A DNA stretch of 64,000 bases from Thermoproteota archaeon (GTDB lineage: Archaea; Thermoproteota; EX4484-205; JAAOZP01): positions 21,731 to 85,730 of the forward strand of contig JBNAVT010000006.1 of the NCBI GenBank assembly GCA_049700215.1. The letters are read 5' to 3'. Positions 1,821 to 29,900 of the stretch are shown piece after piece; position 1 is the first letter of the stretch; every line of letters starts with the position of its first letter. The translations under genes were made by a program, and so were the position numbers. Below the pieces are notes generated by a model that worked only from the letters and a program-made list of their open reading frames with translations, was not told the origin of the DNA and did no database searches.

Positions 1821-2067
1821 CATCATACTCAGGCCGGTTTCAACGGAAAAGTCCTTCAGGCTCATCGAGAGAGAGAACAAGCTGATTTTCATAGTGGACC
1901 CCAAGGCGGATAAAAACAGTGTTAAAGAGGCTGTTGAGAAGACTTTCAACGTTAAGGTTGAGAAAGTCAACATTATAAGAAGCATAACCGGTGAGAAGAA
2001 GGCTGTGGTTAAGCTGGCTAAAGAATACAGCGCGATGGACCTTGCAAGCAAGCTTAAAATAGTATAG
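1807..2067 (+). CDS. rpl23: 50S ribosomal protein L23 (uL23)
   Basis: IILRPVSTEKS...ENKLIFIVD...KKAVVKL; operon position. Confidence 0.97.
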   Translation: MSQSSIILRPVSTEKSFRLIERENKLIFIVDPKADKNSVKEAVEKTFNVKVEKVNIIRSITGEKKAVVKLAKEYSAMDLASKLKIV

Positions 2068-2083
2068 GGAGGATGATGGTTAA

Positions 2084-2815: not shown

Positions 2816-2892
2816 ACATATTTAGAAATCTAGTGGCAGGAACGCGTATGCTATATTTATCAAGAAACTTGTTACTCAATAGAACCAGATAA

Positions 2893-2902
2893 AGCGCGCG
2901 CT
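2893..2902. repeat. AG(CG)nCT palindromic junction motif (AGCGCGCGCT) at the left edge of the accessory region; a 12-mer copy follows at 2966-2977
   Basis: Read directly; exact copies also at 9573, 18333, 31113, 50061. Confidence 0.8.
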
Positions 2903-2932
2903 AAAGAGGTAGCCGAGATACGTGGAAATAGA

Positions 2933-9979: not shown

Positions 9980-11752
9980 ATGAAAGAGAAAATTGGCGTA
10001 CGTGCTCTAATTTTAGTAGCTGTAATACAGCTTTCACTTTTCAGCTTTCTTGTCGCCTCAACGTTCGTGAGAGCAGCTAATGAAAACTATTCATATCCAA
10101 AGATAGTACCTGAGCCAAAATTTTTGAACTTCAGTGGAAGGTGGTTTCAGTTTAACGGGTTTAGCAATTTTCCTAGCTTTTTGGGAGAAGCCTTTAACGT
10201 TGCAAGAGGGAGCTGGAAGATCGTTAATACAACTCTACCAGGCTCGTTTACGAGTTATGTGAGAGTAAAAAACGGAATGGTTGAAGTTTCAGGAGACTTT
10301 AATGTTGCCTATGCTTCTATTCTACAATTAATAAGGCAAAGACTCGGCTACCTACCGGAAATTGAAATTGGCGAGTTTCTTAACTTTCAGTTTAGAGGCT
10401 TCCACTTAGATGTAGCAAGGGGAGGGGTTCCGAAAGTTGAGGCTTTCAAAGATCTTTTAAGATTTCTTTTCCTGCTTAAGTATAACTGCTTGGGGATTTA
10501 TCTTGAAGACCTTTTTCCATGGGAAAACTACCCTGAGATAGGTGCGGGCAGAGGTAAATTTACGAGAGAAGAGCTCTTAGAAATCATTAGCTATGGGGAA
10601 AAGCTTGGAATTGATGTTTTCCCCTCGCTTGAACTTTCAGGACATATGAATAACATACTTTCCATTCCAAGCCTTTCAAAGTATAGCTTAAACGGCAACA
10701 CTTTTCAACTGGACCTTAGCAGCAAAGAAGCAAGAAACCTTGGTTACAGTCTTTTAAACGAGGTGATTAATTTTTGGCCTTCTAGTTACGTTCACATTGG
10801 AGGCGATGAGAACCAGCTTAGCGGTGTCAGCGATGCGCCGAAGCTTTACGAAGGCTATTATGAGCACCTCATCGAGATTGTTAAAAGTAAAGGGAAAAAA
10901 CCAATAATGTGGGGCGATGTCTTACTTTGGACGTGGCCCAGCCTTATCGACAATGCAACTTGGAAAAACGTTGTTATTGCTAACTGGGACTATGGCACCG
11001 CTTCGAAGGAACACTTTGCAGGCAACATTCGATTTTTCAAAGAGAGAAACATAACTCAAATAATCTCTCCAGCCCTCTGGAACTGGAACGCATTTTACCC
11101 CTCATTCGATGCTGCTCTTATGAACCTAGATTCATCGTTAACTGCCGCCAGAGAAGAAAAGATCCCCGGGTTTCTGATAACTGCTTGGGGAGATGATGGG
11201 TGTGAGTGCTTACTCTCTTACCTCCATCCCTTAATACTAGTATCAATGGAGATTGCTGAAGGCAAAGGCAATTGGGATAAAATTTGGTTGGACAAGTGGA
11301 TTGCGTTAACAGGGGAAAGCAAAGAAGTTGCAGAAGTAAGAATAAGGCTGGGAAGCGCAATAATTTTTAGAAACTTAAAGCCCCTTCTCTTTAAGGGCAA
11401 TACCTTTGACAGCGAAGCGATTTCCCGTATGAAGAGTATTTTAGATAACATAAGCAGGGTTGATTTACCTGATGATTTATCCTTCATTAGAGCTATTTTA
11501 GGCGCAGCCATTAAGAGGAGCGAGGGGAAACTAACTCGAGAAGATATTTCAAACTTAGAAAAGGTATACATGAGTCTTTGGCTGAAAGAAAGAAAGCCAG
11601 ATGGCTTAGACTATAACTTGCAGAAGTTCCAAAACGCGGCTGAGCAGATAAGATTGGAAAACCTACGTCAAACAACAGTTTTGATTTCTATATTTATGAT
11701 AGTAGTGATTGCTCTTGCAATTGGATTAAAGTTGTTTTATTCAAGGCGGTAG
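9980..11752 (+). CDS. GH20 beta-N-acetylhexosaminidase with signal peptide and C-terminal membrane anchor
   Basis: RGFHLDVARG, HIGGDE catalytic motif, TAWGDDG; hydrophobic N- and C-termini. Confidence 0.88.
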   Translation: MKEKIGVRALILVAVIQLSLFSFLVASTFVRAANENYSYPKIVPEPKFLNFSGRWFQFNGFSNFPSFLGEAFNVARGSWKIVNTTLPGSFTSYVRVKNGMVEVSGDFNVAYASILQLIRQRLGYLPEIEIGEFLNFQFRGFHLDVARGGVPKVEAFKDLLRFLFLLKYNCLGIYLEDLFPWENYPEIGAGRGKFTREELLEIISYGEKLGIDVFPSLELSGHMNNILSIPSLSKYSLNGNTFQLDLSSKEARNLGYSLLNEVINFWPSSYVHIGGDENQLSGVSDAPKLYEGYYEHLIEIVKSKGKKPIMWGDVLLWTWPSLIDNATWKNVVIANWDYGTASKEHFAGNIRFFKERNITQIISPALWNWNAFYPSFDAALMNLDSSLTAAREEKIPGFLITAWGDDGCECLLSYLHPLILVSMEIAEGKGNWDKIWLDKWIALTGESKEVAEVRIRLGSAIIFRNLKPLLFKGNTFDSEAISRMKSILDNISRVDLPDDLSFIRAILGAAIKRSEGKLTREDISNLEKVYMSLWLKERKPDGLDYNLQKFQNAAEQIRLENLRQTTVLISIFMIVVIALAIGLKLFYSRR

Positions 11753-14523: not shown

Positions 14524-14712
14524 GCGTGAAAAGGTGAAAGAAGGTTGGGAGAATCAGTCCCAAAGGAAAGAGTTAAGCCTTCTGGCCTGAAAACATGGAT
14601 CATAATCTCAGCAATACTAATACCCCCAGTAGGATACTTCCTAAACCTGGTTATGCAGGGCTTCGGAGCCTGGTGGAACTACCCGTTAATATTCCCGTTG
14701 CCATTCTTCTGG
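14524..14712 (+). repeat. 189-bp exact direct repeat, copy 1 (RBS and 5' end of the paralogous genes); copy 2 at 18778-18966
   Basis: Base-by-base comparison, offset 4254. Confidence 0.9.
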
Positions 14713-16554
14713 CACATCGTAACATTCTACTTGCTGTCCAAGGTTTCTAAAAGTTTCAGGCTCTCTCCGCAGGAGCTAACCCTGTTCTTCGTAATCTGTT
14801 TCATAACTGCAGGTGGAATGTATGCCGCGTACGGGTTTGGTTATTGGACCACCTGCCCGCTTCCACACTGGAATATTGGCTTCGCTACCTCAGGATTAAA
14901 CAGTGAGGCTTACCAAAGCGTCTTCTACGAGAAAGTTCCTCCCTTCATTGTTCCTAAAGACCCTGTGGTGATGCGTGCCTTCTGGTATGGCGGAGCCTTC
15001 GACCTGGGTCCATGGCTGGTTCCAGCCCTATTCTGGATAGTCTGGGGAATAGGAGAGTTCATAGGAATGGCGATATGGGGCTACTTCCTGAGAAAACCTT
15101 TAGTAGAAACCGAGAAACTACCCTTCCCAGGCATAGCTCCTCACACATACCTTGTGAAATATTATATAGAAGAGGAGGAGGGCACTCCGATTCTTTTCAA
15201 CTTTAGACTCAGGTTGACGAAGCTTTTCTGGATTGGCTTCGTAATAGGAATGCTTCTGGCGATTCCAGGTCAGGTGATAAACTTCTGGCCGCTGGCGTTC
15301 GGAGGCAACGCGCTTACTAACTGGCCGGTAAACCTCCTAAGCATAACTGAGGGCCCATTACCCGGGGCCTTGACCTCCGGCAACCTTTACGTTACTGATG
15401 TTTTTGTAGCACAGTTCATACCTCTGGACGCACTAGTTACGGCGGTTCTCTACTGGTTTGTCTTCGGCGTAATCTATCAAACTTTGGCGGTTAGAACCGG
15501 TTTGGCTCCATTCACGCCCGGAGCGGGCAACGAGGACCAATATCCTTGGAGCCTGGGGCCGTTTAAATGGATGCAGTTTTCCTGGATAGGACTCTCCTTA
15601 GGCTTGGCTGCCACCGTCGTAGTTAGATATAGGAGTCACATTCTTGAGATCTTCAAGAAGGGGTTGAGGGGTGAAAAGGCTGAGGACGATGGGGTTTCCT
15701 ACAGACTCCTCGCCTGGGGAGCCTTAGGCACGTACCTGCTTCAGGTTGTCCTGTTCGCCGTTACGGGTTCGCCGATAATCATGGCTATAATCATACCCCT
15801 GTTCTTCATATTCTACATGTTCGGATGGACGAGGATGATGGGTGAGGTTGAAGAGTTCATGCCGAGCGTAGATACTTATTCATACCTAGTGTTTGACGCT
15901 GGCACTTTCCTAGGGCAGTGGGGCCCGAGGCCATCTCCAGGAGCTTTCAACACGATACTGATGTACTACAGCTATGGCACAGGGGTTAGAATGAGCTCCA
16001 TGGCGATGCACCACGGATTCAAATCCTACAAGATGGCTTACGAGACCAACACTTCAGGAAAGGAAGTTCTCTACATCACCATAATATCGCTGCTCTCAAC
16101 ACTCGTCGCGGTCTACTTCATATGGCCATGGTTCATGACGAGCTTCGGAGGATACTCGAGGATCAACTCGATAAGCTACAACGACTGGAGCCTCCCAGGG
16201 ATATATAACTGGACATACGGAACTCCTCCTGCCCTAACCGTGGAAGAAACCTGGGGCTATGCCATACTCGGAATAATCGTCACACCAATAATCTACTTCT
16301 TAAGAGCCAGGTTCACATGGTTCTTCATAAACCCAATAGGCATGCTGATGCTTCCAAACGGATGGTGGCCAACCTGGCTAGTAGCCTTCGTCATAAAGTA
16401 CGCGGTCCTCAAGTTCGGCGGCTCCAGAGTGTTCGAGGAAAGATGGCTGCCAATGGCAACGGGAGTCTGCATAGGCTTCGGCGGTTTAGTGCTCTTCGGC
16501 TCCTTGATAACTTTCTTCGGCACAGCTTTGCCTGCGTGGTTAGCTAGGTTCTAG
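14545..16554 (+). CDS. Polytopic membrane protein, OPT-superfamily-like (DUF6785/DUF6784 type), paralog 1
   Basis: 669 aa, many TM helices, LSPQEL and ETEKLPFP motifs, C-terminal INPIG...KYAVLKFGG. Confidence 0.75.
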   Translation: MGESVPKERVKPSGLKTWIIISAILIPPVGYFLNLVMQGFGAWWNYPLIFPLPFFWHIVTFYLLSKVSKSFRLSPQELTLFFVICFITAGGMYAAYGFGYWTTCPLPHWNIGFATSGLNSEAYQSVFYEKVPPFIVPKDPVVMRAFWYGGAFDLGPWLVPALFWIVWGIGEFIGMAIWGYFLRKPLVETEKLPFPGIAPHTYLVKYYIEEEEGTPILFNFRLRLTKLFWIGFVIGMLLAIPGQVINFWPLAFGGNALTNWPVNLLSITEGPLPGALTSGNLYVTDVFVAQFIPLDALVTAVLYWFVFGVIYQTLAVRTGLAPFTPGAGNEDQYPWSLGPFKWMQFSWIGLSLGLAATVVVRYRSHILEIFKKGLRGEKAEDDGVSYRLLAWGALGTYLLQVVLFAVTGSPIIMAIIIPLFFIFYMFGWTRMMGEVEEFMPSVDTYSYLVFDAGTFLGQWGPRPSPGAFNTILMYYSYGTGVRMSSMAMHHGFKSYKMAYETNTSGKEVLYITIISLLSTLVAVYFIWPWFMTSFGGYSRINSISYNDWSLPGIYNWTYGTPPALTVEETWGYAILGIIVTPIIYFLRARFTWFFINPIGMLMLPNGWWPTWLVAFVIKYAVLKFGGSRVFEERWLPMATGVCIGFGGLVLFGSLITFFGTALPAWLARF

Positions 16555-16566
16555 CCTAAAACAATC

Positions 16567-16574
16567 TTTTTTTT
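16567..16574 (+). terminator. Oligo-T archaeal terminator
   Basis: T8 run 13 nt after the stop; a T7 run at 20829-20835 follows paralog 2. Confidence 0.55.
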
Positions 16575-16771
16575 AAAAAAATGCAACAAGCGTATACTAG
16601 GAATGGTTTTTGTTAAACCTTAGTGTGTAGCGCAATAGTTCTCGCGCTCTAGGATAACCGTGCCATGCAATATGATGCAATTAGAGAGCGTTGAGGCATA
16701 TCCTTATCTAATGCACTGGTGTGCGTATAAAAAGTAAGATTTATATTCCATGAAATTTTTTCTGGGGTGAA

Positions 16772-17797
16772 TTGAGTAACTTGGGTGTTGCTGTTATCGG
16801 TTGTGGAAATATAGGTCATGTTCACATTGACCGTTGGAAATCTGTAAGCGGTGCGGAGCTTTTAGTATGCGTGGATGTAGAAGTGGAGAGGGCTAGGCAA
16901 CTGAGTGAAAAATATCATGTACCGAATTTTTACGGGAGTCTCGACCCGGTTTTGAGAGATGACTCCGTGGACATATTAGACGTATGCACTCCGACTTACA
17001 CGCATAAGGAGATCGTAGAAACTGCACTAGAATACGGGAAGAATGTTATAGTTGAAAAACCAATAGCGTTGAAACTTAAAGATGCTGAAAGCATGATTAA
17101 CAAGGCTAGGAGTGCTGGAAGGAAGCTTATGGTTGCTCATGTTCTCAGATTCTGGGCTGAATACATGATGACTAGGAGTTTTATAACTGGTGATGAGATT
17201 GGGACACCTGTTTTTGCTAAAGCCAGTCGGCTAATCGCTCATAATTTTTCCGTCTGGAAAGATTGGCATAATGATCCTAATAAGGGAGGTGGTGTTTTTA
17301 TAGACACCAGTATTCACGACCTTGACTTCTTCATATGGACTTTTGGGAACGCTGAAGAAATATTTGCTCAAGGCGGAACACTAGTGAGAAAGGCTGATTC
17401 GCATGACCATACCAGAGCCTTCGTCTCGTTTAAAAACAAGCTGGACGCTTATGTGGAAGGAAGTTGGATAATGCCTGAGGGCTATCCTTTCAGCTATAGT
17501 CTGGAGGTTATCGGCACTAGAGGTTTGATTCGGATAGGTAGTGATAATCCTAAACAAATCGATATGTTCTTAACCGGAGGCTCGGTGAAAAGGCAGAAAA
17601 TTGTTTTGGAAACCAAGGATCCCTACTTGCTTGAGCTCAATGCTTTTAAAGAATGTGTAAAACAGGACAAGCCTGTCCCTGTGTCCGGCGAAGATGGGAA
17701 AAAGGCATTAGAATTAGCTATAGCTGGAGTCATTTCTGTCCTAAGAAGGAAACCAGTTAGGCTACCTCTAGAAGAGGATTTTCCAGCACTTATATAG
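16772..17797 (+). CDS. Gfo/Idh/MocA family oxidoreductase
   Basis: VIGCGNIG Rossmann motif, VEKP, GGGVFIDTSIHDLD. Confidence 0.92.
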   Translation: MSNLGVAVIGCGNIGHVHIDRWKSVSGAELLVCVDVEVERARQLSEKYHVPNFYGSLDPVLRDDSVDILDVCTPTYTHKEIVETALEYGKNVIVEKPIALKLKDAESMINKARSAGRKLMVAHVLRFWAEYMMTRSFITGDEIGTPVFAKASRLIAHNFSVWKDWHNDPNKGGGVFIDTSIHDLDFFIWTFGNAEEIFAQGGTLVRKADSHDHTRAFVSFKNKLDAYVEGSWIMPEGYPFSYSLEVIGTRGLIRIGSDNPKQIDMFLTGGSVKRQKIVLETKDPYLLELNAFKECVKQDKPVPVSGEDGKKALELAIAGVISVLRRKPVRLPLEEDFPALI

Positions 17798-17817
17798 TCT
17801 CTAAAACGAGTATTTAG

Positions 17818-18330
17818 CTATATACTTTTCCTCCTGTACTCCTCAATCAGCTTTTCATCAATCGGGTAAACACCGTGCTTCCTTGCCAGTTTCAACATTA
17901 GCAGGTAGTTCGACGGTTTCACAGCTGGATGAATACTGTTACTCGATGCTATGATGTGCCCTCCGCCTGGGGAGGCCTTTGCGATTGTTTCTTTTACTGC
18001 TTCTTCAACTTCCCACTAACTTCCGAAAGTAAGAACATAGGAGCAATCAACATTTCCAACAACAGCTATCCTTCTATCATATTTTTCCTTTACCTCTCCT
18101 ATATCCATTCCAGCTATTGGCTCTAGTGGGTCAAGGGCGTCGATTCCAGAGTCTATGATCATACCTATGATTGGCCAAAGGTTTCCGTCGGTATGTTTTA
18201 TAAACGGTATTCCATGCCTCTTCACGGTTTGAACAGCTCTTCTTAAGTAGGGTAACACAAACTCTTCAAACTGTTTCCCAGACATAAGCGGCGCCTTCCT
18301 GTTAGCATAGTCGTCTCCAGTCAACACCAC
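17818..18330 (-). pseudogene. C-terminal half of a uroporphyrinogen decarboxylase / MtaA-CmuA family protein
   Basis: GDDYA, KHTDGN, GNVDC, PGGGHIIASSNSIH motifs; internal TAG at 18016-18018; no 5' half, ends at the palindrome 18332-18343. Confidence 0.85.
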
Positions 18331-18331
18331 G

Positions 18332-18343
18332 TAGCGCGCGCTA
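18332..18343. repeat. Palindromic junction motif TAGCGCGCGCTA at the pseudogene breakpoint
   Basis: Read directly. Confidence 0.85.
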
Positions 18344-18735
18344 AGGTTCCTCTCTAGCCAGAGCCTTCAAAAATCTCTCTCTAGAATTCATGTTCGCAGC
18401 CTTCATCATCAAGTATAAAAACTTTTATAATGGTTCTATTTTCGATTCTGGACAATAATGCCTGCTTAAAAAGTCTCTTGAAGTTAAAACGGGCTTGAAA
18501 GGCAACGGCTTCTGCGAAACGTCACCATTTTTCAAGAAAACCGATTTGAAACTAAATTAGACTAATCGTTATTATTCGACCTTTTTATGAATACGAAAAG
18601 TCGAGGGGCTAGTGGAAATCCTGTTTTGTAACCACAGCCAGCTTTAACATATTATTGTCAACACATATCTCCTTTTCGCTTCCCGTAAGAAGCGGCTTGC
18701 TTCAGATTATCGACAAAAATATAATGGGGAAAAAC

Positions 18736-18755
18736 AATGGGAGTAAGCTTTATAT
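18736..18755 (+). promoter_or_regulatory. BRE/TATA promoter of OPT-like paralog 2
   Basis: Identical to 14482-14501. Confidence 0.75.
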
Positions 18756-18798
18756 GTTTGTAAAATTGCGTCGTAACGCGTGAAAAGGTGAAAGAAGG

Positions 18799-20808
18799 TT
18801 GGGAGAATCAGTCCCAAAGGAAAGAGTTAAGCCTTCTGGCCTGAAAACATGGATCATAATCTCAGCAATACTAATACCCCCAGTAGGATACTTCCTAAAC
18901 CTGGTTATGCAGGGCTTCGGAGCCTGGTGGAACTACCCGTTAATATTCCCGTTGCCATTCTTCTGGAATCTGATAATAATTTACCTGCTCTCTAAACTCT
19001 CCGGAAGGCTCAGGCTCTCCCCGCAGGAGCTAACCCTGTTCTTCGTAATCTGCTATATCACTGCTGGCAGTTACTATGCTGCACAGGGAATAGGCTACTG
19101 GACTACTACGCCAATAACAAATTGGAGCATCGCACATGTAACAACAGGTCTAAACACAGAAACATACAAAACGGTTTTCTACGAGAAAGTTCCGCCTTTC
19201 CTGGTGCCAAAAGATCCGATTGTGATGAACGCGTTCTGGTACGGTGGCGTCTTCAATCTGGATCCATGGATCGTGCCAATTCTCTTCTGGATAGTCTGGT
19301 CAGTCGTTGAATTCTCAACCTTATGGTTCTGGGGCACTATGCTTATAAAGCCATTAATGGAAGTAGAAAGACTACCGTTTCCATGGGTTATGCCAGTAAG
19401 CTTCATGATAAACAATTTCACCTCTACGAGTAATGGGAAGCCAAACCTGTTCAACCTGCGAATCGGCAGCATAAAGTTCTTCTACATAGGGCTGGTCATA
19501 GGCATGCTGCTTTCAGTACCCGGACAGGTTATAAACTTCTGGCCGCTGGCGTTCGGAGGCAACGCACTAGCCAACTGGCCGGTAAACCTCTTGAGTATAA
19601 CCTCTGGCCCACTGCCAGGAGCGCTGCTCGTCGGCAATTTTTATGTTATCGATGCTTTTTCCATAGGACAGCTGATCCCGTTGGACGTGTTAGCAACGGC
19701 TACTCTCTGGTGGTTCATCTGGGGGGTTCTCTTCCAAACAGCGGCTGTCAGACTGGGGATAAACCCATTCACACCTGGCGCTGGAAATGAGACTGCATAT
19801 CCATACTCGCTCGGCGTATTTAAGTGGGCTCAGTTTGACGCTCTTGTTTCTGTTGGCATAGCCTTATACGTAGTTTTCAAGTACTACAAGTATATTCTGG
19901 AAGTTCTTAGAAAAGGCTTTTCCGGGGAAGGCGGAGACGTAGGTGGGATTTCATATAGGCTTATGGCTTTCGGCGCCTTAGGAACGTTACTGATACAAAT
20001 TGTACTCTTCGCCATAGCTGGAACACCTATAGTGATGGCAGTATTCATCCCGTTATTCTATGTTTTAATCATGTTCGCTTGGATAAGAATGATGGGGGAG
20101 CAACACTTCTATCCTTATGGTGGCTCTTACCAAGGTATAGTTTTCGACGTAGGTACTTTTCTCGGCCAATGGGGTGGAAGACCATCTCCAGAAGCATTCA
20201 ACGCCATTTTGATGTACACCTCTCTAGGGTTAGCGGGTTCCAGGATGAGTCCGATGAACATACACTGGGGCTTCATGTCTTTCAAAATAGGTGAGGCGAC
20301 TAATACAAGCTACAGGGAAATACTCTACATCGCGTTGATCTCTATAGTAACTACTGCTGTTGCTGCCTACTTCATATGGCCATGGTTCATGACCAGTTTC
20401 GGCGGGTACTCTAGGATCAATTCAATACAATATGACATTTGGATGCTGCCAACGATTTACAGTTATACTTACGGTACGCCACCGGCTGTAACCGTTGCGG
20501 AGACATGGATCTACACTATAGTAGGCACGATCTTCGTCTTCGCATGCTATACTCTTAGGTCAAGGTTCAGGTGGTTCTTCATAAATCCAGTAGGTCTAAT
20601 GATGCTGCCCGAGGGCTTCTGGCCCGCTTGGCTCGTAGCCTTTATCGTAAAATATGCTGTGCTTAAATTCGGTGGTTCAAGGGTGTTCGAAGAAAAGTGG
20701 ATGCCGTTAGCGATGGGGATTGGTATAGGCTTCGGCGCTCTAGTGCTGTTCGGAGCTTTGATAACCTTCTTCAACGTATCGTTACCAACGTGGCTCGGCC
20801 GATTTTAA
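18799..20808 (+). CDS. Polytopic membrane protein, OPT-superfamily-like (DUF6785/DUF6784 type), paralog 2
   Basis: 669 aa, colinear with 14545-16554; first 56 residues identical; EVERLPFP motif. Confidence 0.75.
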   Translation: MGESVPKERVKPSGLKTWIIISAILIPPVGYFLNLVMQGFGAWWNYPLIFPLPFFWNLIIIYLLSKLSGRLRLSPQELTLFFVICYITAGSYYAAQGIGYWTTTPITNWSIAHVTTGLNTETYKTVFYEKVPPFLVPKDPIVMNAFWYGGVFNLDPWIVPILFWIVWSVVEFSTLWFWGTMLIKPLMEVERLPFPWVMPVSFMINNFTSTSNGKPNLFNLRIGSIKFFYIGLVIGMLLSVPGQVINFWPLAFGGNALANWPVNLLSITSGPLPGALLVGNFYVIDAFSIGQLIPLDVLATATLWWFIWGVLFQTAAVRLGINPFTPGAGNETAYPYSLGVFKWAQFDALVSVGIALYVVFKYYKYILEVLRKGFSGEGGDVGGISYRLMAFGALGTLLIQIVLFAIAGTPIVMAVFIPLFYVLIMFAWIRMMGEQHFYPYGGSYQGIVFDVGTFLGQWGGRPSPEAFNAILMYTSLGLAGSRMSPMNIHWGFMSFKIGEATNTSYREILYIALISIVTTAVAAYFIWPWFMTSFGGYSRINSIQYDIWMLPTIYSYTYGTPPAVTVAETWIYTIVGTIFVFACYTLRSRFRWFFINPVGLMMLPEGFWPAWLVAFIVKYAVLKFGGSRVFEEKWMPLAMGIGIGFGALVLFGALITFFNVSLPTWLGRF

Positions 20809-20884
20809 TCAGAAAACCTTAAAAATCCTTTTTTTATCCTAAACAACTCGTGGTTAAGGTGACTAGAAGAGGTGGATATCTCTA

Positions 20885-23800
20885 ATGGTAACCCGTAAAG
20901 ATGAGCGAGAAGGCTGGAGATATGTTCTTACACTCCTCATTCTGGTTTTAACTGGTGCAAACCTGCTCTCTGATGCGAAGGCCTTCTCGAAGGCGGAAGC
21001 CCAGCCTAGTGACGAAGGCTTCGTAGCAATCCTTTCCGACTTTGATAAGTCTAGGCTTATTGAGCATTTGGAATTCTTTTCATCCTTGGGGTCAAGAGTA
21101 ACCGGTTATCCAGGTTTCTATAAGGCCTCGAATTACATAACTGATAGGTTTAAAGAATTAGGGTTAAAAGTAATAATTCAGAATTACACCGCGGTATGCC
21201 CGGTAGATGGCGACGATTACGTTGTTTTGAAAACTAAGGATCGCTCTTACAGGGTCAAGGCCTTCTCAGTATGGCCGAATCTCGTACAAGCCTGTAAGAC
21301 TCCACCGGAAGGTGTTTCCGGTAAACTGTTTTACATAGGGAGTGGGGGCTATCAAGCCCTTAAAGGTAAGCCGGTGAACGGGTCGATCGTCCTGATGGAT
21401 TTTAACAGTGGGAATAATTGGATTCAGGCCGCTGCGCTTGGAGCGAAAGGAGTTATCTTCATAGAGCCTGAGGAGAGCAACTATGCAGAAGCTAGGTCGA
21501 AGTTCCTGCTTACCCCCATATACTTGCCGAGGCTTTACGTTTCAAGAAAGGATGCTTTACTCATTCTAAACATACTTGAAGAGAATAATGGCGAAGTGGA
21601 TGCTACAATCGTGAACAATATGGCTCTCAAAAATGTTGTCGGCCAAAACATAATTGGCATACTAGAGGGCACGGATTATCCGAATGATGTAATCGTTGTT
21701 TCAACTCACTACGACACGTGGTCAGTCGTTCCTGCAATAGCCTCTTCGAAAGACGAGGCAACATCGATTTCAGCCTTATTAGAATTCGCGAGAGTTTTCT
21801 CAGGTCAGAAGCCTAAAAGGACGATCTGGTTCGTTGCGTTTTCCGGCCACTACCAGGCCCTAGCGGGCTCCAGGGCCTTTGTGGACGAGTTCTTCTATAA
21901 TAATAGTGTTGTCGAGGGTCATACGAAGATTTGGCTGCAAATCAACATGGATTTTTCAACAAGCTCGAAGAGCATATCTTTCCTCAGCCAGGGCTTCTTC
22001 TATAGGTATGGGAGCACAACCGTTCAAGCAAGATGGACTGGATGGTTGCAGACAAAGCTTATGGATGTAGTGGATGCTTTTAGCAGGGAAGTAAGCCCCG
22101 TTGAAGTGATTTACGGTTTTCCCACTAATGCTTGGTGGGGTACTCAAGTGGCCCCCTACATCCTGGATTCTGAGCCATTATCTATGGCCCATGGATTAGG
22201 GTTCACGATAAAGACGGGTAGAACTCTAAACTTCTTCTGGGGCTTGCCCTTGAGCCAGGATGTGAACTATGATAATCTTTGGCCTCAGGCTTACCTGAGC
22301 CTAGCTATAATCCATGAGCTTTCAAACTCGAAAGACTGGGGAATCAGGTGGGATCAAGTGTCCCCAGCCGTCTCAGGTAAGAGTAGAACACTTATAGCAG
22401 CTGGGGCTACAGATGTGGCTGGGTTTATCAGAGTATACGGCAGGACGTTAACGTTCAATATTACTAAGGGATGGTATACTCCGCTTCCGAACGCAACAGT
22501 CGTAGTATTACCCGGAGGCCTAGGCTACACTAATTATCCTTTCCAGATCATCTACGTTTTTTCAGACTCTCAAGGTAAGTTTGAAGTAAGGGGATTAGGC
22601 TACGGCTTGGCCCCATGTCTTGGCGCATATACGTTCCTAGCGTTTAGGCTGAACGGAGAAACCGGTCTGATAGAATATGCTCCGGATTTCGGCCAGTATG
22701 GTGCACAATACCTTCCAAACTACTATCAGTTAAACACGGAGCCCTATAACGTAACCACAATAGCGTTCAGGTCTAACACGGTCGTGTTCTTCAATGTCTT
22801 CGATTATCAAGGCTTAAGACCACTAATCTTCAGGGATCCGCGTGTACCTACGAACGTTTGGCTCCAATCCATTCCCTCTGTTCAACTGCTTAACGCTAAA
22901 TCTCTAGGTCCTGACATATCTTGGGGAGTTTTCCTCCAGCCCGATGATAAAATCCTAGTCGCTTTCGTTCAGCCTCACACTTATTTCGTGAGCTTCATAA
23001 CCATAGGGTCTACAAGAGTGCTTGAAGTTCTATTAACAAACACCTCTGTAGCTTCAATACCGCCATACGACTTTTATGGATACGGTTCAAAGGATAACGA
23101 GGAGATTCATGTAAACGCCTTGCTTGAGTCCGCGAAAAATATTTACACTACTTCGCTAAACAGATACGTTGGGCTGCGCGATTTAAACATATGGAATCCA
23201 TTAATCCAGGATTCTTTGAATAATGCTTTATTCTACAAGAATCTCCTCTCCGATTCTTTAAGAACCCTTGACTATTTGACGATGCTTCAATCAGCAACCT
23301 CTTTAAATTCCATCGTAGTTAGGTCCTACGGGGGGGTTATGGGTTTAATCAACGATATACCAACAACCTCTATCTTCCTGATAATCATACTTGCATCATT
23401 CTCATTCCTAGCGCCCGCTGTCTTCATTAGAGCCCAGGGGAAGATAGTGGCAATATCTTCAGCCGTGCTCTTCATCGTAATGATGCTTCTTTTATACTAT
23501 GTAAATCCAATATTTAAACTCGCAGCTAATTTCATCATGGCTCCTCTCAGCGTGATCGTAGTAGTGTTCTTCGTGCTTGTAACCTTCTTATTCTCTTCCG
23601 AAGCCCTGGGCACTTTGAAAACGATAAGGACTAAGACGCTTGGGGCTCACTTTGCGGAGAAAAGTCTTACCTCATTTACGCTAGTCATTTTCCCGTACAC
23701 GATAGAGCATATGAAAAGACGTAAACTGAGAACTTCCCTAGTCATGCTTTCGATAGCTTCCGTGGTTTTCGCATTCGTATCTCTTACTTCCGTCTCGATT

Positions 23801-25384
23801 TACCAGGCTCCTATGCCGTCCTCGATCCCAGAGGGTAAAGTCAACTATATGGGTGTCTGCGTAAAGACGAATATTCGACAGCAACCGAGTGGAGCATTCG
23901 ACTATGATTTGATCAACGTGTTAAAGCAGGAGCGGTTCGCCGATTTGGCGTCAATAATTGCTCCAAGATGCTGGTGGTATCCTGAAGCGATCGAAGGTAG
24001 AGACGTTTACACCTTCATAAAGTCAAACACCTCCTCCACCACTATCAAAGCCGTCATAGGGCTAACTCCTGAAGAATACCACGTGTATGATTATTCGAAA
24101 GCTTTGATCCAAGGTAGATGGTTTAACTCTGAAGACTACTACTCTGCAATCCTTCCCCTTAACATCGCTAAAGATTTGTCGGTTAAGGTTAATGACACAA
24201 TCGTTTTCGAAGGCTTAAAGCTTAAAGTAGTTGGGGTCGTGAATTCTTCTACTTTAAACAGTTTTGTCGACTTCGATGGATACATCGATACTCCGTTATA
24301 CCCTATCCTACCGTCTATAGTCCTTGGGACGGTTCAGGAGCCGCAGTACGCTCCGACACCATGGAGCATGATGCTAATATTGCCTTACGAGCTAGTGAAG
24401 GATATGGGTGGCTATTTGGCGAGTGTTTCTATAGTGACGAAGAGCTATGATGATGCTGCAGCCCTCGCTGAAAGAATTGCAAACGTATTTAGTATTCCGA
24501 TTTACGTTTCCTCTCCCGAGGGAGCGATCTATTATAGTCCAATAGTCTCCTTCACTCCTTCAGGCCTCTCCTTCGCTCTACCCTTGATAGTCATAGGCGC
24601 CGCATCGATTTCCGTAGCAGTATTAGGCTCAGTAAAGGAGAGGAGGGGCGATATCTTTGTGTATAGCGCCGTCGGCCTTCCGCCTTCCGGCTCAGCAATA
24701 ATGTTGATTATAGAGGCGGTTACATATTCGATCTTGTCTGTGGTTCCCGCCTATTTCTTGGGGGTAGTGGCAAACTCGTTTTTGATCTCCGGCAGATTCC
24801 TGCCGGAAAGCTTTTCTCTAAACGCTACGTCCCTCTCCATAGCCCTTGCGATCTTCGCAGGCATTTTATCAACCTTATTGGCGATGATCTACCCCATTCG
24901 AATGGCTTCAAAGCTAATTACGCCTTCGCTTGAAAGGAAATGGAAGATTCCGACGAAGCCAAAGGGCAACCTGTGGGATATCCCACTACCGTTTTCGCTA
25001 ACCGAGGAAAGGGAGGTTGAGGCGGTTTACTTATTCTTGGAAGAGTTCTTTAAAGCACATACTTCCGAGACCCCTGATCCGTTCATAGTCAGGAGTATAA
25101 AGACGGATATTAAAGAGAAAATGCAGGAGCTTTTAGTTTCCTTAATGCCTCTGGATTCAGGAGTCTACCAGAGGGCCTTAATAAATTCAAAGTTTTACGA
25201 GGATACGAGGAGATACGACTTCATGCTTAGACTGGAAAGAATAGAGGGTACTCCGGACACTTGGGTTGCTTTAAACTACGGCTTTATAGATGCTGTTAGG
25301 AAGCAACTATTAACTTGGAAGATGCTTTCAGACAGTGATAAAAGCAGGTATATAGAGTTGGTGGATAAAGGAGGTGCGAGTTAA
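20885..25384 (+). CDS. Large membrane protein: signal peptide, PA and M28-peptidase-like ectodomain, TM bundle, MacB/FtsX-like permease
   Basis: SRVTGYPG, GAKGVIF (PA), THYD..DEA..ALLEFAR (M28); RRKLRTSL and SVKERRGDIFVYSAVG (FtsX/MacB). Confidence 0.8.
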   Translation: MVTRKDEREGWRYVLTLLILVLTGANLLSDAKAFSKAEAQPSDEGFVAILSDFDKSRLIEHLEFFSSLGSRVTGYPGFYKASNYITDRFKELGLKVIIQNYTAVCPVDGDDYVVLKTKDRSYRVKAFSVWPNLVQACKTPPEGVSGKLFYIGSGGYQALKGKPVNGSIVLMDFNSGNNWIQAAALGAKGVIFIEPEESNYAEARSKFLLTPIYLPRLYVSRKDALLILNILEENNGEVDATIVNNMALKNVVGQNIIGILEGTDYPNDVIVVSTHYDTWSVVPAIASSKDEATSISALLEFARVFSGQKPKRTIWFVAFSGHYQALAGSRAFVDEFFYNNSVVEGHTKIWLQINMDFSTSSKSISFLSQGFFYRYGSTTVQARWTGWLQTKLMDVVDAFSREVSPVEVIYGFPTNAWWGTQVAPYILDSEPLSMAHGLGFTIKTGRTLNFFWGLPLSQDVNYDNLWPQAYLSLAIIHELSNSKDWGIRWDQVSPAVSGKSRTLIAAGATDVAGFIRVYGRTLTFNITKGWYTPLPNATVVVLPGGLGYTNYPFQIIYVFSDSQGKFEVRGLGYGLAPCLGAYTFLAFRLNGETGLIEYAPDFGQYGAQYLPNYYQLNTEPYNVTTIAFRSNTVVFFNVFDYQGLRPLIFRDPRVPTNVWLQSIPSVQLLNAKSLGPDISWGVFLQPDDKILVAFVQPHTYFVSFITIGSTRVLEVLLTNTSVASIPPYDFYGYGSKDNEEIHVNALLESAKNIYTTSLNRYVGLRDLNIWNPLIQDSLNNALFYKNLLSDSLRTLDYLTMLQSATSLNSIVVRSYGGVMGLINDIPTTSIFLIIILASFSFLAPAVFIRAQGKIVAISSAVLFIVMMLLLYYVNPIFKLAANFIMAPLSVIVVVFFVLVTFLFSSEALGTLKTIRTKTLGAHFAEKSLTSFTLVIFPYTIEHMKRRKLRTSLVMLSIASVVFAFVSLTSVSIYQAPMPSSIPEGKVNYMGVCVKTNIRQQPSGAFDYDLINVLKQERFADLASIIAPRCWWYPEAIEGRDVYTFIKSNTSSTTIKAVIGLTPEEYHVYDYSKALIQGRWFNSEDYYSAILPLNIAKDLSVKVNDTIVFEGLKLKVVGVVNSSTLNSFVDFDGYIDTPLYPILPSIVLGTVQEPQYAPTPWSMMLILPYELVKDMGGYLASVSIVTKSYDDAAALAERIANVFSIPIYVSSPEGAIYYSPIVSFTPSGLSFALPLIVIGAASISVAVLGSVKERRGDIFVYSAVGLPPSGSAIMLIIEAVTYSILSVVPAYFLGVVANSFLISGRFLPESFSLNATSLSIALAIFAGILSTLLAMIYPIRMASKLITPSLERKWKIPTKPKGNLWDIPLPFSLTEEREVEAVYLFLEEFFKAHTSETPDPFIVRSIKTDIKEKMQELLVSLMPLDSGVYQRALINSKFYEDTRRYDFMLRLERIEGTPDTWVALNYGFIDAVRKQLLTWKMLSDSDKSRYIELVDKGGAS

Positions 25385-27314
25385 AATGAGCCAGACCATT
25401 GAGTTCAAAAGTGGAATAACTTGGAGGGTGATATTCGCCCTCTTCTTTGCTTCAATAGTTCTACTACCGGTCTCGATATATTTGAGCTTGGTTTCAGGAG
25501 CGGCAATAGCCGGAGCCTTCAGTTACATTGTCGTAATCCTTTTCCTAGAGGTGGGTTCTTTAATGAATATTCGCCTGTCTAAGCAAGAGCTTTTCATCAT
25601 GTTCATAATGATAGGGGTTGCTGCATCCACACCCATGACGGACTTCATATACCGTCACTACTTGGTAACAGGGCCTGTTGGATGGTCGTTCATAGACCCA
25701 TTTACTAATCTACCTCTTCCAGAGGTTATTCCTACTTTCTATGTTCCGTACTGGAGGGATATACAATTCAGCAGAACTCTGCTTTCAAGCACTTGGCTTC
25801 TCCCAATGTTTCTCTCCACTTTACAATTCGGCATTCTGTTCATCGTCGCAGAAATCTCGTTAACCATTATCTGCTCTCAACTCTTTCTAGAGACGGAGAA
25901 ACTGCCTTTTCCGTTTGCAGACATCTCTGCACAGATGATAAACACGCTGACTGATAGGCCTGCGGACAGGATGGAGGTCTTCATTATCTCTGCAGCAATT
26001 GGAGCATTTTACTCGTTTTTCCTGTACGGGATAAATACGATTAGCCTAGGGCTTTGGGGTACAAACATACAAATCATTCCTGTCCCATGGTGGGATTTGA
26101 CAACCGGATTGCTTGGGATAGAGCGGCTCCTTCCAGGAGCTGCCCTTGGCATTGCAACCGACCCTCTAACTTGGATAGGCGGCTTCCTAATCCCGTTTAA
26201 CACAGTAGCCTATATGTTTGCCAGCTCAATCCTAGTGTGGGTAATAGGAAACAATCTCGCCCTCTCCTTTTTCAGCGGCTACTTTCCATTGTGGAAAGAG
26301 GAATGGACTTTCGGCATGAGTCTAAGTTTGGTGTGGCAAAGGTCTATGCTCAGGGTCTGGCTAATACCGCAGATTGGATTCATGCTAGCCATTTCAATAC
26401 TGGCGTTGGCGCAGAATTGGAGAGTGATAGTTAGGGGGATTCGTTCCCTGTGGAGGCTTTCAGCCCAGAGCAAGGCAGCCGGCTACCCGTCTTTAAAGGT
26501 TCTTCTAGCCCTCTACTTTGCTTCCATCATTGCTTCAGTTCTTATCTTCAATCATTTCATACCGGATTTTCCAGTATTGCCTGCTCTCGCTGTCTCGCTC
26601 GGCGTTTCGTTTCTGAACGCGGTAATAGGCACGAGGGCCGTTGGTGAAACTGGTTACGCTGTAAGCATACCGTATGCGTGGGCTTTTACGATCATGCTCT
26701 CAGGCTACCAGAAAATCGATGCTTGGTTCTTCAGCCCAGTAATAGGCGGTGGGTCGGCTCCTTCATGGGTTCAAAGCATGAAAGTCGCTTATCTGACTGA
26801 AACAAAACCGATTGATTTCCTTAAAGCTTTCATTATTGCCTTTATACTTTACACAATATTTGGTGTAGTATACGCCAGCGTATTCTGGATGATCGCCCCA
26901 ATCCCCTCTTCGGCTTATCCGAACACGCTTATCTCGTGGCCAGTTCAAGCTATAAACCAACTAATGTGGGCTACTAGACAGGTCTTCACCTTAAACTTGA
27001 CTGTTCTTTTATTCTTCTTCTCCCTAGCCATAGGCCTCGGTATAGTGGGTTCACTCTTAACCAAGCTTGCTTCAATACCATTTAGCCTAATGGGTATCGC
27101 TACTGGTATGTCAACGCTCCCAGCGTTCACGATTCCCATGTTCCTAGCCGCGCTAATCGGAAGATACTTGATGCCGCGCTTCCTTGGAAGAGAGTGGTGG
27201 GAAAAATACAAAACAGTTGTGGCTGCAGGCATTGCAACGGGGGAAGGCGTGCTTGTTGGCTTAGTAATAGGCATAGTACTTCTCTCCAAGGTAGGATGGA
27301 TACTTCCGTTTTAA
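25374..27314 (+). CDS. OPT-superfamily-like membrane protein (third paralog)
   Basis: GITWRVI start, LSKQEL, ETEKLPFP, C-terminal VAAGIATGEG typical of the OPT family; start may be ATG 25386. Confidence 0.75.
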   Translation: MRVKMSQTIEFKSGITWRVIFALFFASIVLLPVSIYLSLVSGAAIAGAFSYIVVILFLEVGSLMNIRLSKQELFIMFIMIGVAASTPMTDFIYRHYLVTGPVGWSFIDPFTNLPLPEVIPTFYVPYWRDIQFSRTLLSSTWLLPMFLSTLQFGILFIVAEISLTIICSQLFLETEKLPFPFADISAQMINTLTDRPADRMEVFIISAAIGAFYSFFLYGINTISLGLWGTNIQIIPVPWWDLTTGLLGIERLLPGAALGIATDPLTWIGGFLIPFNTVAYMFASSILVWVIGNNLALSFFSGYFPLWKEEWTFGMSLSLVWQRSMLRVWLIPQIGFMLAISILALAQNWRVIVRGIRSLWRLSAQSKAAGYPSLKVLLALYFASIIASVLIFNHFIPDFPVLPALAVSLGVSFLNAVIGTRAVGETGYAVSIPYAWAFTIMLSGYQKIDAWFFSPVIGGGSAPSWVQSMKVAYLTETKPIDFLKAFIIAFILYTIFGVVYASVFWMIAPIPSSAYPNTLISWPVQAINQLMWATRQVFTLNLTVLLFFFSLAIGLGIVGSLLTKLASIPFSLMGIATGMSTLPAFTIPMFLAALIGRYLMPRFLGREWWEKYKTVVAAGIATGEGVLVGLVIGIVLLSKVGWILPF

Positions 27315-27477
27315 AGGTGCGTCGTTTATTTTTAATGAAGCTTAGAGGCATATTTATACATGTTGTCTTCACGTTCTTCAAGATGCGTACAGCTGGTTTC
27401 GCCAACCTCGAAGGTCAGCCTTATGCAGCATAAGGTAGGTGACTATGTTGTCGGAAAACAGTTGTAGCACGCGTGCT

Positions 27478-27784
27478 CCAAAACGGGTTCCAACAGGGGG
27501 GAAAGTCTATTTATGAAGTTCTGCATCTCGCCTGGAAGAGGTGCATAGACTGGTGTCGCTAACACAAGTATATCAGCCTCGCGCAGCTTGGGGTAAAGCA
27601 ACCGCATATCGTCAGAAATGATGCAATCCCCAGGCTTATCATACCTGCAAGAAAAGTCTCCGATGCAAGGCCTGATGTTGAGGCATTTTACATAGAAAAG
27701 CTCGACTGTCGCGCCTGCCTCCCTCATGCCGTTGAGAAACGGTTCCATGATCATTGTTGTGTCACTATTCTCCATGCGGGTGCG
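27478..27784 (-). pseudogene. Internal fragment of an iron-sulfur flavoprotein (flavodoxin family)
   Basis: IRPCIGDFSC...C..DDM..ADILVLATPVY; lacks the N-terminal xxINGS and the C-terminal half; bounded by palindromes 27466-27477 and 27785-27792. Confidence 0.8.
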
Positions 27785-29294: not shown

Positions 29295-29900
29295 GTGACT
29301 GATAAACTGGGCTTAAAGAAGAGAAAGGTTCTAGGCGTGTCGTTCAGCGCAAGAAAAGAGGGGAACTGCTTAAGATTAGTAACTTATTGTCTGAATAAGT
29401 TTAGGGAGCAAGGTTTTGAAACAGAAGTTTTGAATGCTTACGAGCATGAAATCATCCCCTGCAGCCATTGCAATTACGAGTGTTTCAACGATAAGGAGTG
29501 CCCCCTTAAAGATGATGCCCCACTAATATACCAGAAGTGTGTGTCCGCTGATATTTTAATCTTCAGTATCCCGACTTACGGGGGGCATCTTTCGTCCCTA
29601 TATTTCGCTTTCGCGGAACGTTCGCAGGCAGTTTTCAAAAGTTTTCAAGAATGTAAGGAAAAGCTGTTGAAAAAAATTAACTTTATAATCATCGGTAATC
29701 TTTCAGCCGGAGGCGACATGGCTCTTCACGAGGCGCTCTATAGCTTCGTAAACCTTAGTTTCTGGCCTGAAACACTCCTATTCCCTGCGAGAGAATACGG
29801 GAGGAGCTCGATCAAAGGCGATTTGATCAACGACCCTGAGGTGAAGAAAAGGCTCGACAGGTTTGTGGAAATCATGCTGAAAAAAGCTGAGAAGCAGTAG
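29295..29900 (+). CDS. Flavodoxin-family iron-sulfur flavoprotein / NADPH-dependent FMN reductase
   Basis: SARKEGNC, CSHCNYEC..C, ADILIFSIPTYGG. Confidence 0.82.
   Translation: MTDKLGLKKRKVLGVSFSARKEGNCLRLVTYCLNKFREQGFETEVLNAYEHEIIPCSHCNYECFNDKECPLKDDAPLIYQKCVSADILIFSIPTYGGHLSSLYFAFAERSQAVFKSFQECKEKLLKKINFIIIGNLSAGGDMALHEALYSFVNLSFWPETLLFPAREYGRSSIKGDLINDPEVKKRLDRFVEIMLKKAEKQ

Follow-up and report, generated by a model that had tools for sequence, protein, structure and literature searches.

A conserved gene set of OPT-like permeases and a giant FtsX-type protein in Thermoproteota: a possible nutrient uptake module

Why should permeases of one transporter superfamily be encoded together with a giant membrane protein of another, and where would such an assembly find its motor? 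These questions are raised by a 64,000-nucleotide stretch of DNA from a Thermoproteota archaeon (GenBank assembly GCA_049700215.1, contig JBNAVT010000006.1, positions 21,731 to 85,730 of the forward strand). We refer to this whole stretch as the window, and coordinates are those of the window unless another contig or locus is named. The window contains four large membrane-protein genes, called here A1, A2, B, and C. A first-pass annotation had described them as co-oriented and had read them as an uptake system composed of an M28-like receptor fused to an FtsX permease and three OPT-like paralogs, with no ATPase in the locus. All four open reading frames (ORFs) are on the + strand, at positions 14545-16554 (A1, 669 aa), 18799-20808 (A2, 669 aa), 20885-25384 (B, 1499 aa), and 25374-27314 (C, 646 aa).

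We show below that the A, B, and C genes are inherited together in archaea and that A and B are paired in bacteria as well. We tentatively read them as encoding a hitherto undescribed module that takes up oligomeric, (glyco)peptide-like nutrients, in which the A and C permeases work with B and probably with a motor encoded elsewhere. This is the account toward which we lean, with confidence a little short of even.

Results

The A, B, and C genes form a conserved unit

The distribution of these genes was analyzed in 401 genomes sampled from the phylum. B-type matches (E <= 1e-20) were present in 93 of them, and 68 had a strong, full-length B (best E <= 1e-150). C was found in 63 of the 401 genomes, and a comparison of the two tables placed all 63 within the 68 genomes that have a strong B match and none within the other 333. 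The five strong-B genomes that lack C comprise two that are 70% complete and three that are themselves incomplete or have B at a contig end.

The neighborhood of B was surveyed over 20 kb around 41 full-length B genes (40 loci in 38 other archaeal genomes), with the ORFs scanned using custom hidden Markov models. C was located within 200 bp of B in 29 of the 41 cases and within 3 kb in 36, and for A the corresponding figures were 27 within 3 kb and 32 within 7.5 kb. In 29/41 cases A and C were both within 5 kb of B, and five B genes (four from genus g61, plus L074) had neither nearby. Across lineages the order of the genes is shuffled and their membership is constant. Of 21 loci from Armatimonadota-type bacteria, 17 have an A-type gene immediately before B and the remaining four begin with B at a contig edge; tandem A genes like those in the window are present in 3 of the 21. 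From these results, we conclude that the A, B, and C genes are one obligate, widely conserved unit, and the pairing of A with B extends to archaea and bacteria alike. The four genes of the window are one copy of this module plus an extra A gene.

The genome that contains the window has seven DUF6785 matches and 12 FtsX matches, which include five A-B-C cassettes (contigs C6, C43, C3, C4, and C38) and one solo A gene. In each of its cassettes, B and C have the same nearest orthologs, and the distances among B proteins correlate with those among C proteins (r 0.59, a value that none of 2000 permutations reached). This co-variation and the matching orthologs indicate that the cassettes are old paralogs inherited as units.

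Two further observations bear on how closely the parts are joined. In P0101, a single protein of 2088 aa, B and A are fused in frame: a complete B is followed by ∼20 residues and a complete A, with all domains complete; this natural fusion argues for the physical association that the first-pass annotation had proposed. That annotation also had C overlapping the B stop codon. This is so when C begins at GTG 25374, which extends C 11 nt over the end of B (TAA at 25382-25384), and not when it begins at ATG 25386 (642 aa), which is 1 nt past the stop, has GGAGGTG ∼10 nt upstream, and is used by one database record. With either start, the B and C genes are tightly coupled. A complex prediction for B aa 1213-1499 with C, made with 22-row alignments and no controls, returned a score of 0.00 and counts neither way.

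A and C are distant paralogs related to the OPT superfamily

The A1 and A2 proteins are polytopic membrane proteins that are 66% identical. Both match PF20581 (DUF6785; cutoff 25 bits) and PF20580 (DUF6784; cutoff 26.4 bits) in that order, A1 with 70.2 bits (E 1.7e-19) and 26.4 bits (E 7.9e-6) and A2 with 52.8 and 29.8 bits, respectively; C matches neither. Among the A-clade relatives, 19/21 match DUF6785 and 15/21 match DUF6784.

A pairwise comparison of A1 with C is barely detectable (BLASTP E 0.014). When a profile of 21 A proteins was compared with a profile of 22 C proteins, 591 columns were aligned with an hhalign probability of 99.95 (E 4e-38), and on the strength of these profiles A and C are distant paralogs. 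They fall into two separate clades in a tree of 93 proteins: the C clade has 39 members, all archaeal (support 1.0), and the A clade has 36 archaeal and 18 bacterial members. The common motifs claimed for A1, A2, and C were found, as RLSPQEL, RLSPQEL, and RLSKQEL and as VETEKLPFP, MEVERLPFP, and LETEKLPFP, respectively; the second of these, E.E(K/R)LPFP, may be akin to the 'LTFPSG'-type motif of OPT proteins.

The C protein of the window had no Pfam match at E <= 0.01, and the OPT family model TIGR00728 gave it 16.6 bits, far under the cutoff of 128. A match to PF03169 (OPT) at E <= 0.01 was present in 7/22 C-clade relatives and 1/21 A-clade relatives, and in 21-31% of the members of Atlas neighbors of C. 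That A and C score below OPT cutoffs, yet some of their relatives match PF03169, points to a remote superfamily relation rather than to family membership as defined by these models. The AlphaFold (AF2) model of C (predicted local distance difference test score (pLDDT) 89.5, predicted template modeling (TM) score 0.90) matched barley YS1 (HvYS1, 7wst_A) in a Foldseek search with E 1.6e-10 and TM scores of 0.66/0.70 over 673 columns; beyond YS1 the next match had an E of only 0.15. As modeled, C has the OPT/YS1 fold. A likely has an OPT fold too, which follows only from its hhalign match to C. Sequence searches of the PDB found no match with the C profile and two matches at chance level (E 2.5 and 3.6) with the A profile, and the genome contains no canonical stand-alone OPT protein above the Pfam cutoff. 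Together, the profile match, the modeled fold, and the PF03169 matches among relatives bear out the claim that the three smaller proteins are OPT-like.

A study of YS1 describes it as an OPT-family homodimer that has an elevator-like mechanism and works without a partner (PMC9691689). Because YS1 is a homodimer, an A-C heterodimer is the natural guess, and by this analogy A and C probably pair as one. The suggestion that the three proteins are interchangeable subunits does not hold for A and C, which belong to old, separate clades and are both carried by most archaeal cassettes; only the extra A copy of the window would fit the role of an alternative subunit.

The two A genes have a 5′ tract in common (14524-14823 (+) and 18778-19077, identified by a repeat search). 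Within it they are identical at 14532-14711 (100%, with ∼190 nt in all covering ∼21 nt of leader and the first 56 codons), as compared with a sliding identity of 37-85% over the rest of the genes, which suggests that their 5′ ends, and only these, were homogenized by recent gene conversion. A promoter-like box, AATGGGAGTAAGCTTTATAT, lies ∼60 nt upstream of both the A1 and A2 starts.

B combines an altered M28-like head with a MacB/FtsX-type base

From hydropathy and a model of aa 812-1499 (pLDDT 85.5), B consists of an N-terminal anchor, an ectodomain of ∼800 aa, three extra TM (here transmembrane) helices, a MacB-type unit, and a cytoplasmic end domain. Pfam places M28 at aa 255-371, MacB_PCD at aa 952-1200, and FtsX at aa 1230-1343, with a sub-threshold PA domain at aa 145-225. 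The three extra helices (aa 818-902; 23336-23590 (+)) are predicted by hydropathy and are helices H2-36, H42-62, and H74-108 of the AF2 model that starts at aa 812.

The MacB-type module (23738-24913 (+)) is supported by Pfam (PF12704 and PF02687), Foldseek, and VIA. It contains TM1 and a periplasmic core domain (aa 952-1200) followed by the FtsX part with TM2-4 (aa 1230-1343), and B scores above the cutoffs of two type VII ATP-binding cassette (ABC) permease models (38.9 bits versus 25.5 and 37.9 bits versus 27). In Foldseek, the model of the base matched MacB (5gko, E 8.9e-12), LolCDE, and HrtBA; in VIA, it matched YtrEF (Z 14.9) and the MacB periplasmic domain (Z 14.5, root mean square deviation 3.1 over 179 aa). 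FtsEX, YbbAP, and BceAB were also matched. The coupling-helix motif ER..EI, the best conserved of the family, is kept, and R1253, G1264, L1265, and P1267 are invariant.

The C-terminal domain of B (aa 1353-1483; 24941-25333 (+)) is a separate block of the AF2 model with pLDDT mostly 83-95. It has a small α+β fold of β-α-β4-α2 topology, for which VIA, using the 688-residue model, returned only borderline matches (KA1, BamC-N, and Aha1/START-like; Z 7.5-8.8); an Atlas search gave no usable match. A profile of this domain found 1603 representative clusters (∼1600 at 50% identity). The domain was C-terminal in 150/150 of the matches listed, among which the full-length proteins are ∼1430-1570 aa long. 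B has no Pfam match to ABC_tran (PF00005), the Walker-type nucleotide-binding domain. Judging from its modeled fold and these matches, the end domain is specific to the B family and is not an ATPase.

The core of the ectodomain (21317-22204 (+); delimited by Pfam, a PDB profile search, and the columns of 61 B proteins) is a PA-like insert with an M28-like domain. The match to M28 (PF04389) is well above the cutoff (54.1 versus 21.3 bits) and covers only profile positions 1-105 of 193. When searched against the PDB, the profile of the head matched the PA+M28 aminopeptidase 2ek8 (E 4.9e-27) as well as transferrin receptor, nicalin, and GCPII. The M28-like domain extends from aa 255 to ∼440, and its site, with positions assigned from a HMMER alignment to 2ek8 and known M28 motifs, has HYD at 275-277, D290, SGHY at 320-323 in place of Glu-Glu, D356, and E430. 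In 60/61 B proteins, His322 and an aromatic residue (Trp, Tyr, or Phe) take the place of the catalytic Glu-Glu; the first His is present in 23/61, the bridging Asp in 11/61, and Asp356 in 55/61. B thus lacks the full set of co-catalytic zinc ligands (His, Asp, Glu, Asp, and His) and the catalytic Glu, and what is left in the head is a conserved polar cluster of D277, H322, D356, and E430. The loss of Glu-Glu in 60/61 and the rarity of the first His and the bridging Asp indicate that B is not a canonical di-zinc peptidase. These column counts make the M28 part look like a non-catalytic, receptor-type domain, in line with the receptor proposed from the first reading. The remaining ∼440 residues of the ectodomain had no match in Pfam or in the PDB profile search.

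Related proteins carry other heads. B homologs of 2335-2558 aa (P0072 and P0079-P0087) have LysM (PF01476) beside M28 and FtsX, which hints, from domain content, at binding of N-acetylglucosamine-containing polymers. The same genome encodes a 1792-aa protein that has GH2-like N-terminal domains together with MacB_PCD and FtsX (L006 7338-12716 (-), on G000:C16), and three further FtsX proteins of 1017-1071 aa whose heads have no family assignment. None of these four has an adjacent ATPase, and they appear to be a family of enzyme-like heads on an FtsX base.

MacB-type ATPases are encoded away from B

No ABC_tran match was found in the 43 window ORFs scanned, and the nearest on the contig (G000:C6:14453-14896) is ∼6.8 kb before the window start. 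An ABC ATPase was likewise absent within 1 kb of all 41 archaeal B genes and within 10 kb in all 21 bacterial loci. Five ABC matches are located within 3 kb of an archaeal B: one next to a BPD_transp_1 permease, three of the DrrA/ABC-2 type, and one of the MacB type (2.2 kb, in G085). The ABC genes close to B mostly belong to other transporters (BPD_transp_1, ZnuABC, CbiQ, DrrA/ABC-2, and FecCD). The 337-aa ABC genes found 1.5 kb from B in family f12 were considered as a motor and rejected, being DrrA-type genes beside an ABC-2 permease with a FecCD system adjoining.

The genome as a whole encodes four MacB-type ATPases as against 12 FtsX proteins. Two of these ATPases adjoin ordinary small permeases, the third (G000:C9:1950-2675) adjoins a 243-aa mini-FtsX without a periplasmic domain (G000:C9:2691-3422; the pair spans 1950-3422), and the fourth is an orphan beside ABCE1 (G000:C1:21833-22576). 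Orthologs of the orphan (E <= 1e-85) are present in 82/401 genomes, usually as two paralogs, and the per-family tallies of this ATPase and of B agree in 26 of the 30 listed families; in family f7, for example, it is the same 2/16 genomes that have both. In G046, and likewise in G198, a tight mini-FtsX-ATPase-ATPase operon is 3.2 kb from C; in g61 the ATPase is 4.9 kb from C, with the mini-FtsX on the other side of the island; in G085 the ATPase is separated from B by 2.2 kb; and in G359 it is 0.26 kb away from a short B. Among B-bearing genomes, fragments of MacB-type ATPases are present in G363 and 44-47% relatives in G383 and G248; the one genome with none is G150, which is 70% complete. The claim that no ATPase is present is therefore right for the locus (0/62 B genes have one within 1 kb) and wrong for the genome, which has the orphan ATPase and the mini-FtsX/ATPase operon. 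A cognate ATPase linked to the module in other genomes would have told against an ATPase-free system, and this is in part what is seen: the orthologs co-distribute with B and, in four genera, are found at distances of 0.3-5 kb from the module.

These data leave two ways of powering an A-B-C complex. In the first, the base of B would be a type VII ABC system whose ATPase is encoded outside the locus. The candidate motor in trans would be the 243-aa mini-FtsX with its ATPase plus the orphan ATPase, shared among the five B paralogs and possibly with further large FtsX fusions, in the manner of an ECF energizing module that serves many S components. In the second, the same complex would be truly ATPase-free: B would have lost its ABC motor and become a static membrane-anchored receptor or scaffold, or a stalk moved by a proton-driven OPT-fold elevator, with the end domain filling the place where an ATPase docks. 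The absence of ABC ATPases next to B and the assignment of most nearby ABC genes to other transporters fit this proposal. So do the position of the family-specific, non-ATPase end domain directly past TM4 and, in the natural fusion, its connection by ∼20 residues to the N terminus of A. Against it, B has kept a coupling-helix motif with an invariant Arg, a motif that contacts the ATPase in MacB-type systems; no B genome examined is clearly without MacB-type ATPases; and the orphan-type ATPases and mini-FtsX co-distribute with B and approach the module in four genera. We regard an ATPase-free complex as possible but unlikely. On the narrower question of whether B is driven by a shared motor in trans or works with no ATPase, the balance is about even, slightly favoring the shared motor.

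The surroundings of the module contain enzymes of glycan, amino-sugar, and peptide metabolism

The first-pass annotation had listed GH20, Gfo/Idh/MocA, sugar isomerase, and deacetylase genes as neighbors, and all are in the window, the isomerase as a weak AraA/FucI-like protein and the deacetylase as PIG-L. The GH20 hexosaminidase-like protein (9980-11752 (+), by Pfam) has, by hydropathy, an N-terminal signal or anchor and a C-terminal TM helix, so it is probably at the cell surface. The Gfo/Idh/MocA oxidoreductase gene (16772-17797 (+); PF01408, E 2.8e-30) is inserted between A1 and A2, and genes of this type recur next to the module (L041, L043, L048, L049, L052, and L080). The window also contains cytoplasmic DUF4838/GH20-like and GH3 proteins, M24, and an MFS gene. 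The other cassettes of this genome have Asparaginase_2 with GH38, BNR, and a CBM4_9 protein beside them. Cassettes in other genomes are accompanied by two NamZ genes with a BadF-type kinase, by SIS with BadF, by MR_MLE with M20, by GH3, GH4, GHL10, and Peptidase_C39_2, and repeatedly by Gfo/Idh/MocA and URO-D-like genes.

In such mixed neighborhoods, the substrate class rests on a recurring minority of enzymes that act on glycans, amino sugars, or peptides. They point weakly to amino-sugar-containing peptides or glycans, for example N-glycopeptides or wall fragments. For the glycan or glycopeptide substrate proposed earlier, this means that the enzymes are indeed present and that the substrate itself is still read from mixed surroundings.

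Several other features of these loci were observed. In family f30, a separate 670-aa M28 protein (PF04389, E 7e-23) is encoded between B and C (L067 12718-14742 (-) and L068 5620-7629 (+)). A 104-aa ORF at 18016-18330 (-), within the 1 kb that separates A2 from the Gfo/Idh/MocA gene, matches URO-D over profile positions 209-295 of 346 only (E 4e-12) and, from this partial match, looks like a truncated URO-D-like gene; full URO-D-like genes adjoin the module in L042, L047, and L074 and lie near the solo A gene of L005. Downstream of C are two FMN_red matches, at 27443-27775 (-) and 29295-29900 (+), the first of which (110 aa, profile positions 13-97 of 152) may be truncated. Elsewhere in the genome, on G000:C3, a 674-aa homolog of ornithine cyclodeaminase/mu-crystallin (L002 3777-5801 (-)) has two matched stretches with LAGLIDADG_3 between them and may be an intein-containing enzyme.

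The archaeal origin of the window is borne out by its L3/L4/L2 and NFACT genes, which are of archaeal type, and by the nearest homologs of B, which are labeled Bathyarchaeota or Thermoproteota. Two paralogous archaeal-type cofactor-independent phosphoglycerate mutase genes are 9 kb apart (45336-46661 (+) and 55540-56715 (+)). An Rfam scan of window positions 9000-30000 found no family at threshold.

Discussion

In the reading that we favor, A and C would be the likely translocating subunits, probably arranged as a heterodimer after the model of barley YS1, a proton-coupled homodimer of the elevator type. B would be their obligate partner, with a surface head set on a MacB/FtsX-type mechanotransmission base and followed by the family-specific cytoplasmic end domain. 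At the cell surface, the head most likely binds or presents oligomeric substrates, which A and C would then take up. The substrates could be peptide-, glycopeptide-, or amino-sugar-containing fragments.

Several observations weigh against this reading. The lack of an ABC ATPase near B in the archaeal and bacterial loci does not fit readily with a motor. Relatedness among the genomes confounds the co-distribution of B with the MacB-type ATPases, as does the fact that any FtsX protein needs such ATPases. A rough estimate, based on 2 ATPase genes, several modules, and a genome of ∼1.7 Mb, gives 3-4 genera by chance, close to the 4 of ∼38 in which ATPase and module are within 10 kb of each other. 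It may also be that the mini-FtsX and its ATPases work as an independent system. The B-A fusion is only one protein from a single record, and a search among longer proteins found no fusions of clade C, although this is weak evidence. The co-variation of B and C could stem from linkage alone. Many housekeeping genes were among the 102 ORFs scanned around 22 loci. Finally, in genus g61 a long B occurs without A or C and beside two other conserved ORFs.

The loci of g61 also contain an A-C pair, 2.2 kb from a shorter FtsX protein (1054-1072 aa). This arrangement indicates linkage to this kind of FtsX protein, not strictly to the M28-bearing form, and it means that B and A/C are not inseparable. 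The two ORFs that follow the long B encode a 339-aa membrane protein and a 296-aa soluble protein (L049 5678-7580 (-), also L048, L072, and L073). The possibility that they are a split OPT protein was rejected, as they had no match to the A, C, B, or ABC profiles (hmmsearch --max, E <= 10) and none in Pfam.

The g61 arrangement, with long B and the A-C pair at separate places, fits another explanation, in which the genes encode co-regulated but physically independent parts of a nutrient-utilization locus, of the kind known for polysaccharides or peptides. B would then be a surface binding or processing protein on its own MacB-type machine, and A and C would be stand-alone importers of the released products. 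OPT proteins normally act alone. The order and distances of the genes also vary, with A often 2 kb away and other genes between. Independent parts would not, however, be expected to show the nested distribution in which C occurs in 63 of 68 strong-B genomes and 0 of 333 others, the pairing across archaea and bacteria, the start/stop coupling of B and C, the in-frame B-A fusion, or the membership of B and its C in matching subfamilies, and the absence of a canonical stand-alone OPT protein from the genome adds to these objections. We consider this explanation improbable.

An envelope-biogenesis or export machine, in which B would act at the outer face like LolCDE or FtsEX (in S-layer or glycoprotein maturation or wall remodeling) with A and C as exporters or flippases of a precursor, is the least probable of the alternatives: it can point to the outward or envelope-directed action of characterized type VII ABC systems (MacB, LolCDE, FtsEX, HrtBA, and BceAB), to genes of the glycosyltransferase type in some loci (GT2 in L042, an undecaprenyl-diphosphate synthase in L056, and a PMT-like gene in L080), and to the GH2-like head that the same genome fuses to the same kind of base, but five or more divergent cassettes per genome near different catabolic enzymes are a better fit to substrate-specific uptake, characterized OPT proteins import, and most families of the phylum gave no sign of the module (C in 63/401 genomes).

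Under the uptake reading, the closest known relatives of B are the type VII ABC systems (MacB, LolCDE, FtsEX, HrtBA, YtrEF, YbbAP, and BceAB). B aa 952-1343 resembles them in the four-TM FtsX topology, the MacB-like periplasmic core domain, and the coupling-helix motif. It differs from them in having no fused or adjacent ATPase, in its three additional TM helices, 800-aa PA/M28-like head, and KA1-like cytoplasmic end domain, and in its obligate linkage, and in one case fusion, to OPT-fold permeases. To our knowledge, no member of the type VII ABC family is linked to OPT proteins, carries the added head and end domain, or lacks an ATPase in this way. FtsEX with its hydrolase partners (EnvC, PcsB, RipC, and CwlO) likewise has an FtsX-type base that governs an enzyme-like extracytoplasmic domain; in B, by contrast, the head is fused, the M28 site is noncanonical, the partners are transporters, and no cell-division context was seen.

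Within the OPT/Yellow-Stripe family (TC 2.A.67, PF03169; HvYS1, 7wst/7wsr), the model of C matches HvYS1 over its whole length. The window A and C proteins score below the family cutoffs and are two fixed paralogs coupled with B, whereas known OPT proteins stand alone; this obligate coupling speaks against a role for A and C as stand-alone, proton-coupled carriers of oligopeptides or metal chelates. The PA-like insert and M28-like domain are features of transferrin receptor, nicalin, and GCPII, and the catalytic residues are lost in B as they are in transferrin receptor and nicalin; the likeness is at the sequence level and is confined to the first ∼370 residues.

Two other comparisons concern function and imply no homology. 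In TRAP and TTT systems, a secondary-transporter fold depends on an extracytoplasmic receptor; that receptor is soluble or lipid-anchored, whereas B is a membrane protein with an ABC-type base. In group II ECF transporters, one ATPase set serves many components, a situation that the 12 FtsX proteins and four MacB-type ATPases of this genome may parallel if the ATPases are shared; the membrane parts are not homologous.

If these analogies are taken to their limit, the module could represent a new hybrid transporter class, in which a type VII ABC mechanotransmission unit feeds or gates an OPT-fold elevator heterodimer, a primary-active motor and the fold of a secondary transporter thus acting as one importer. 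B would be paired asymmetrically with the domain-less mini-FtsX and with two different ATPases shared among many paralogous heads, and the cassettes would provide different specificities for detrital glycopeptide-type nutrients in uncultured archaea and bacteria that are abundant. We put this fuller proposal forward as a doubtful one, well behind the general uptake reading.

Each part of the module can be assigned to a known superfamily: OPT on the basis of fold, the type VII ABC permeases on the basis of sequence and fold, and, for the head, M28-like domains that lack the catalytic set. Their combination is undescribed in the literature searched. No paper describing the module was found under the topics of DUF6785/DUF6784, FtsX, the OPT family, M28, and Bathyarchaeia, and the available portion of a paper on Armatimonadota contains only generic 'OPT' and 'M28' annotations (PMC11535203).

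OPT transporters and MacB/FtsX systems have each been viewed as self-contained, and here their union is conserved from Thermoproteota to Armatimonadota. A function for the module would extend to DUF6785, DUF6784, and many genes labeled 'M28 family peptidase' or 'FtsX-like permease', and the module provides a test case for two possibilities, that an FtsX-type module can do without an ATPase of its own and that several can share one. Genomes of lineages believed to subsist on detrital polymers have several cassettes each, and the module may thus be one of the main routes of nutrient capture in these organisms.

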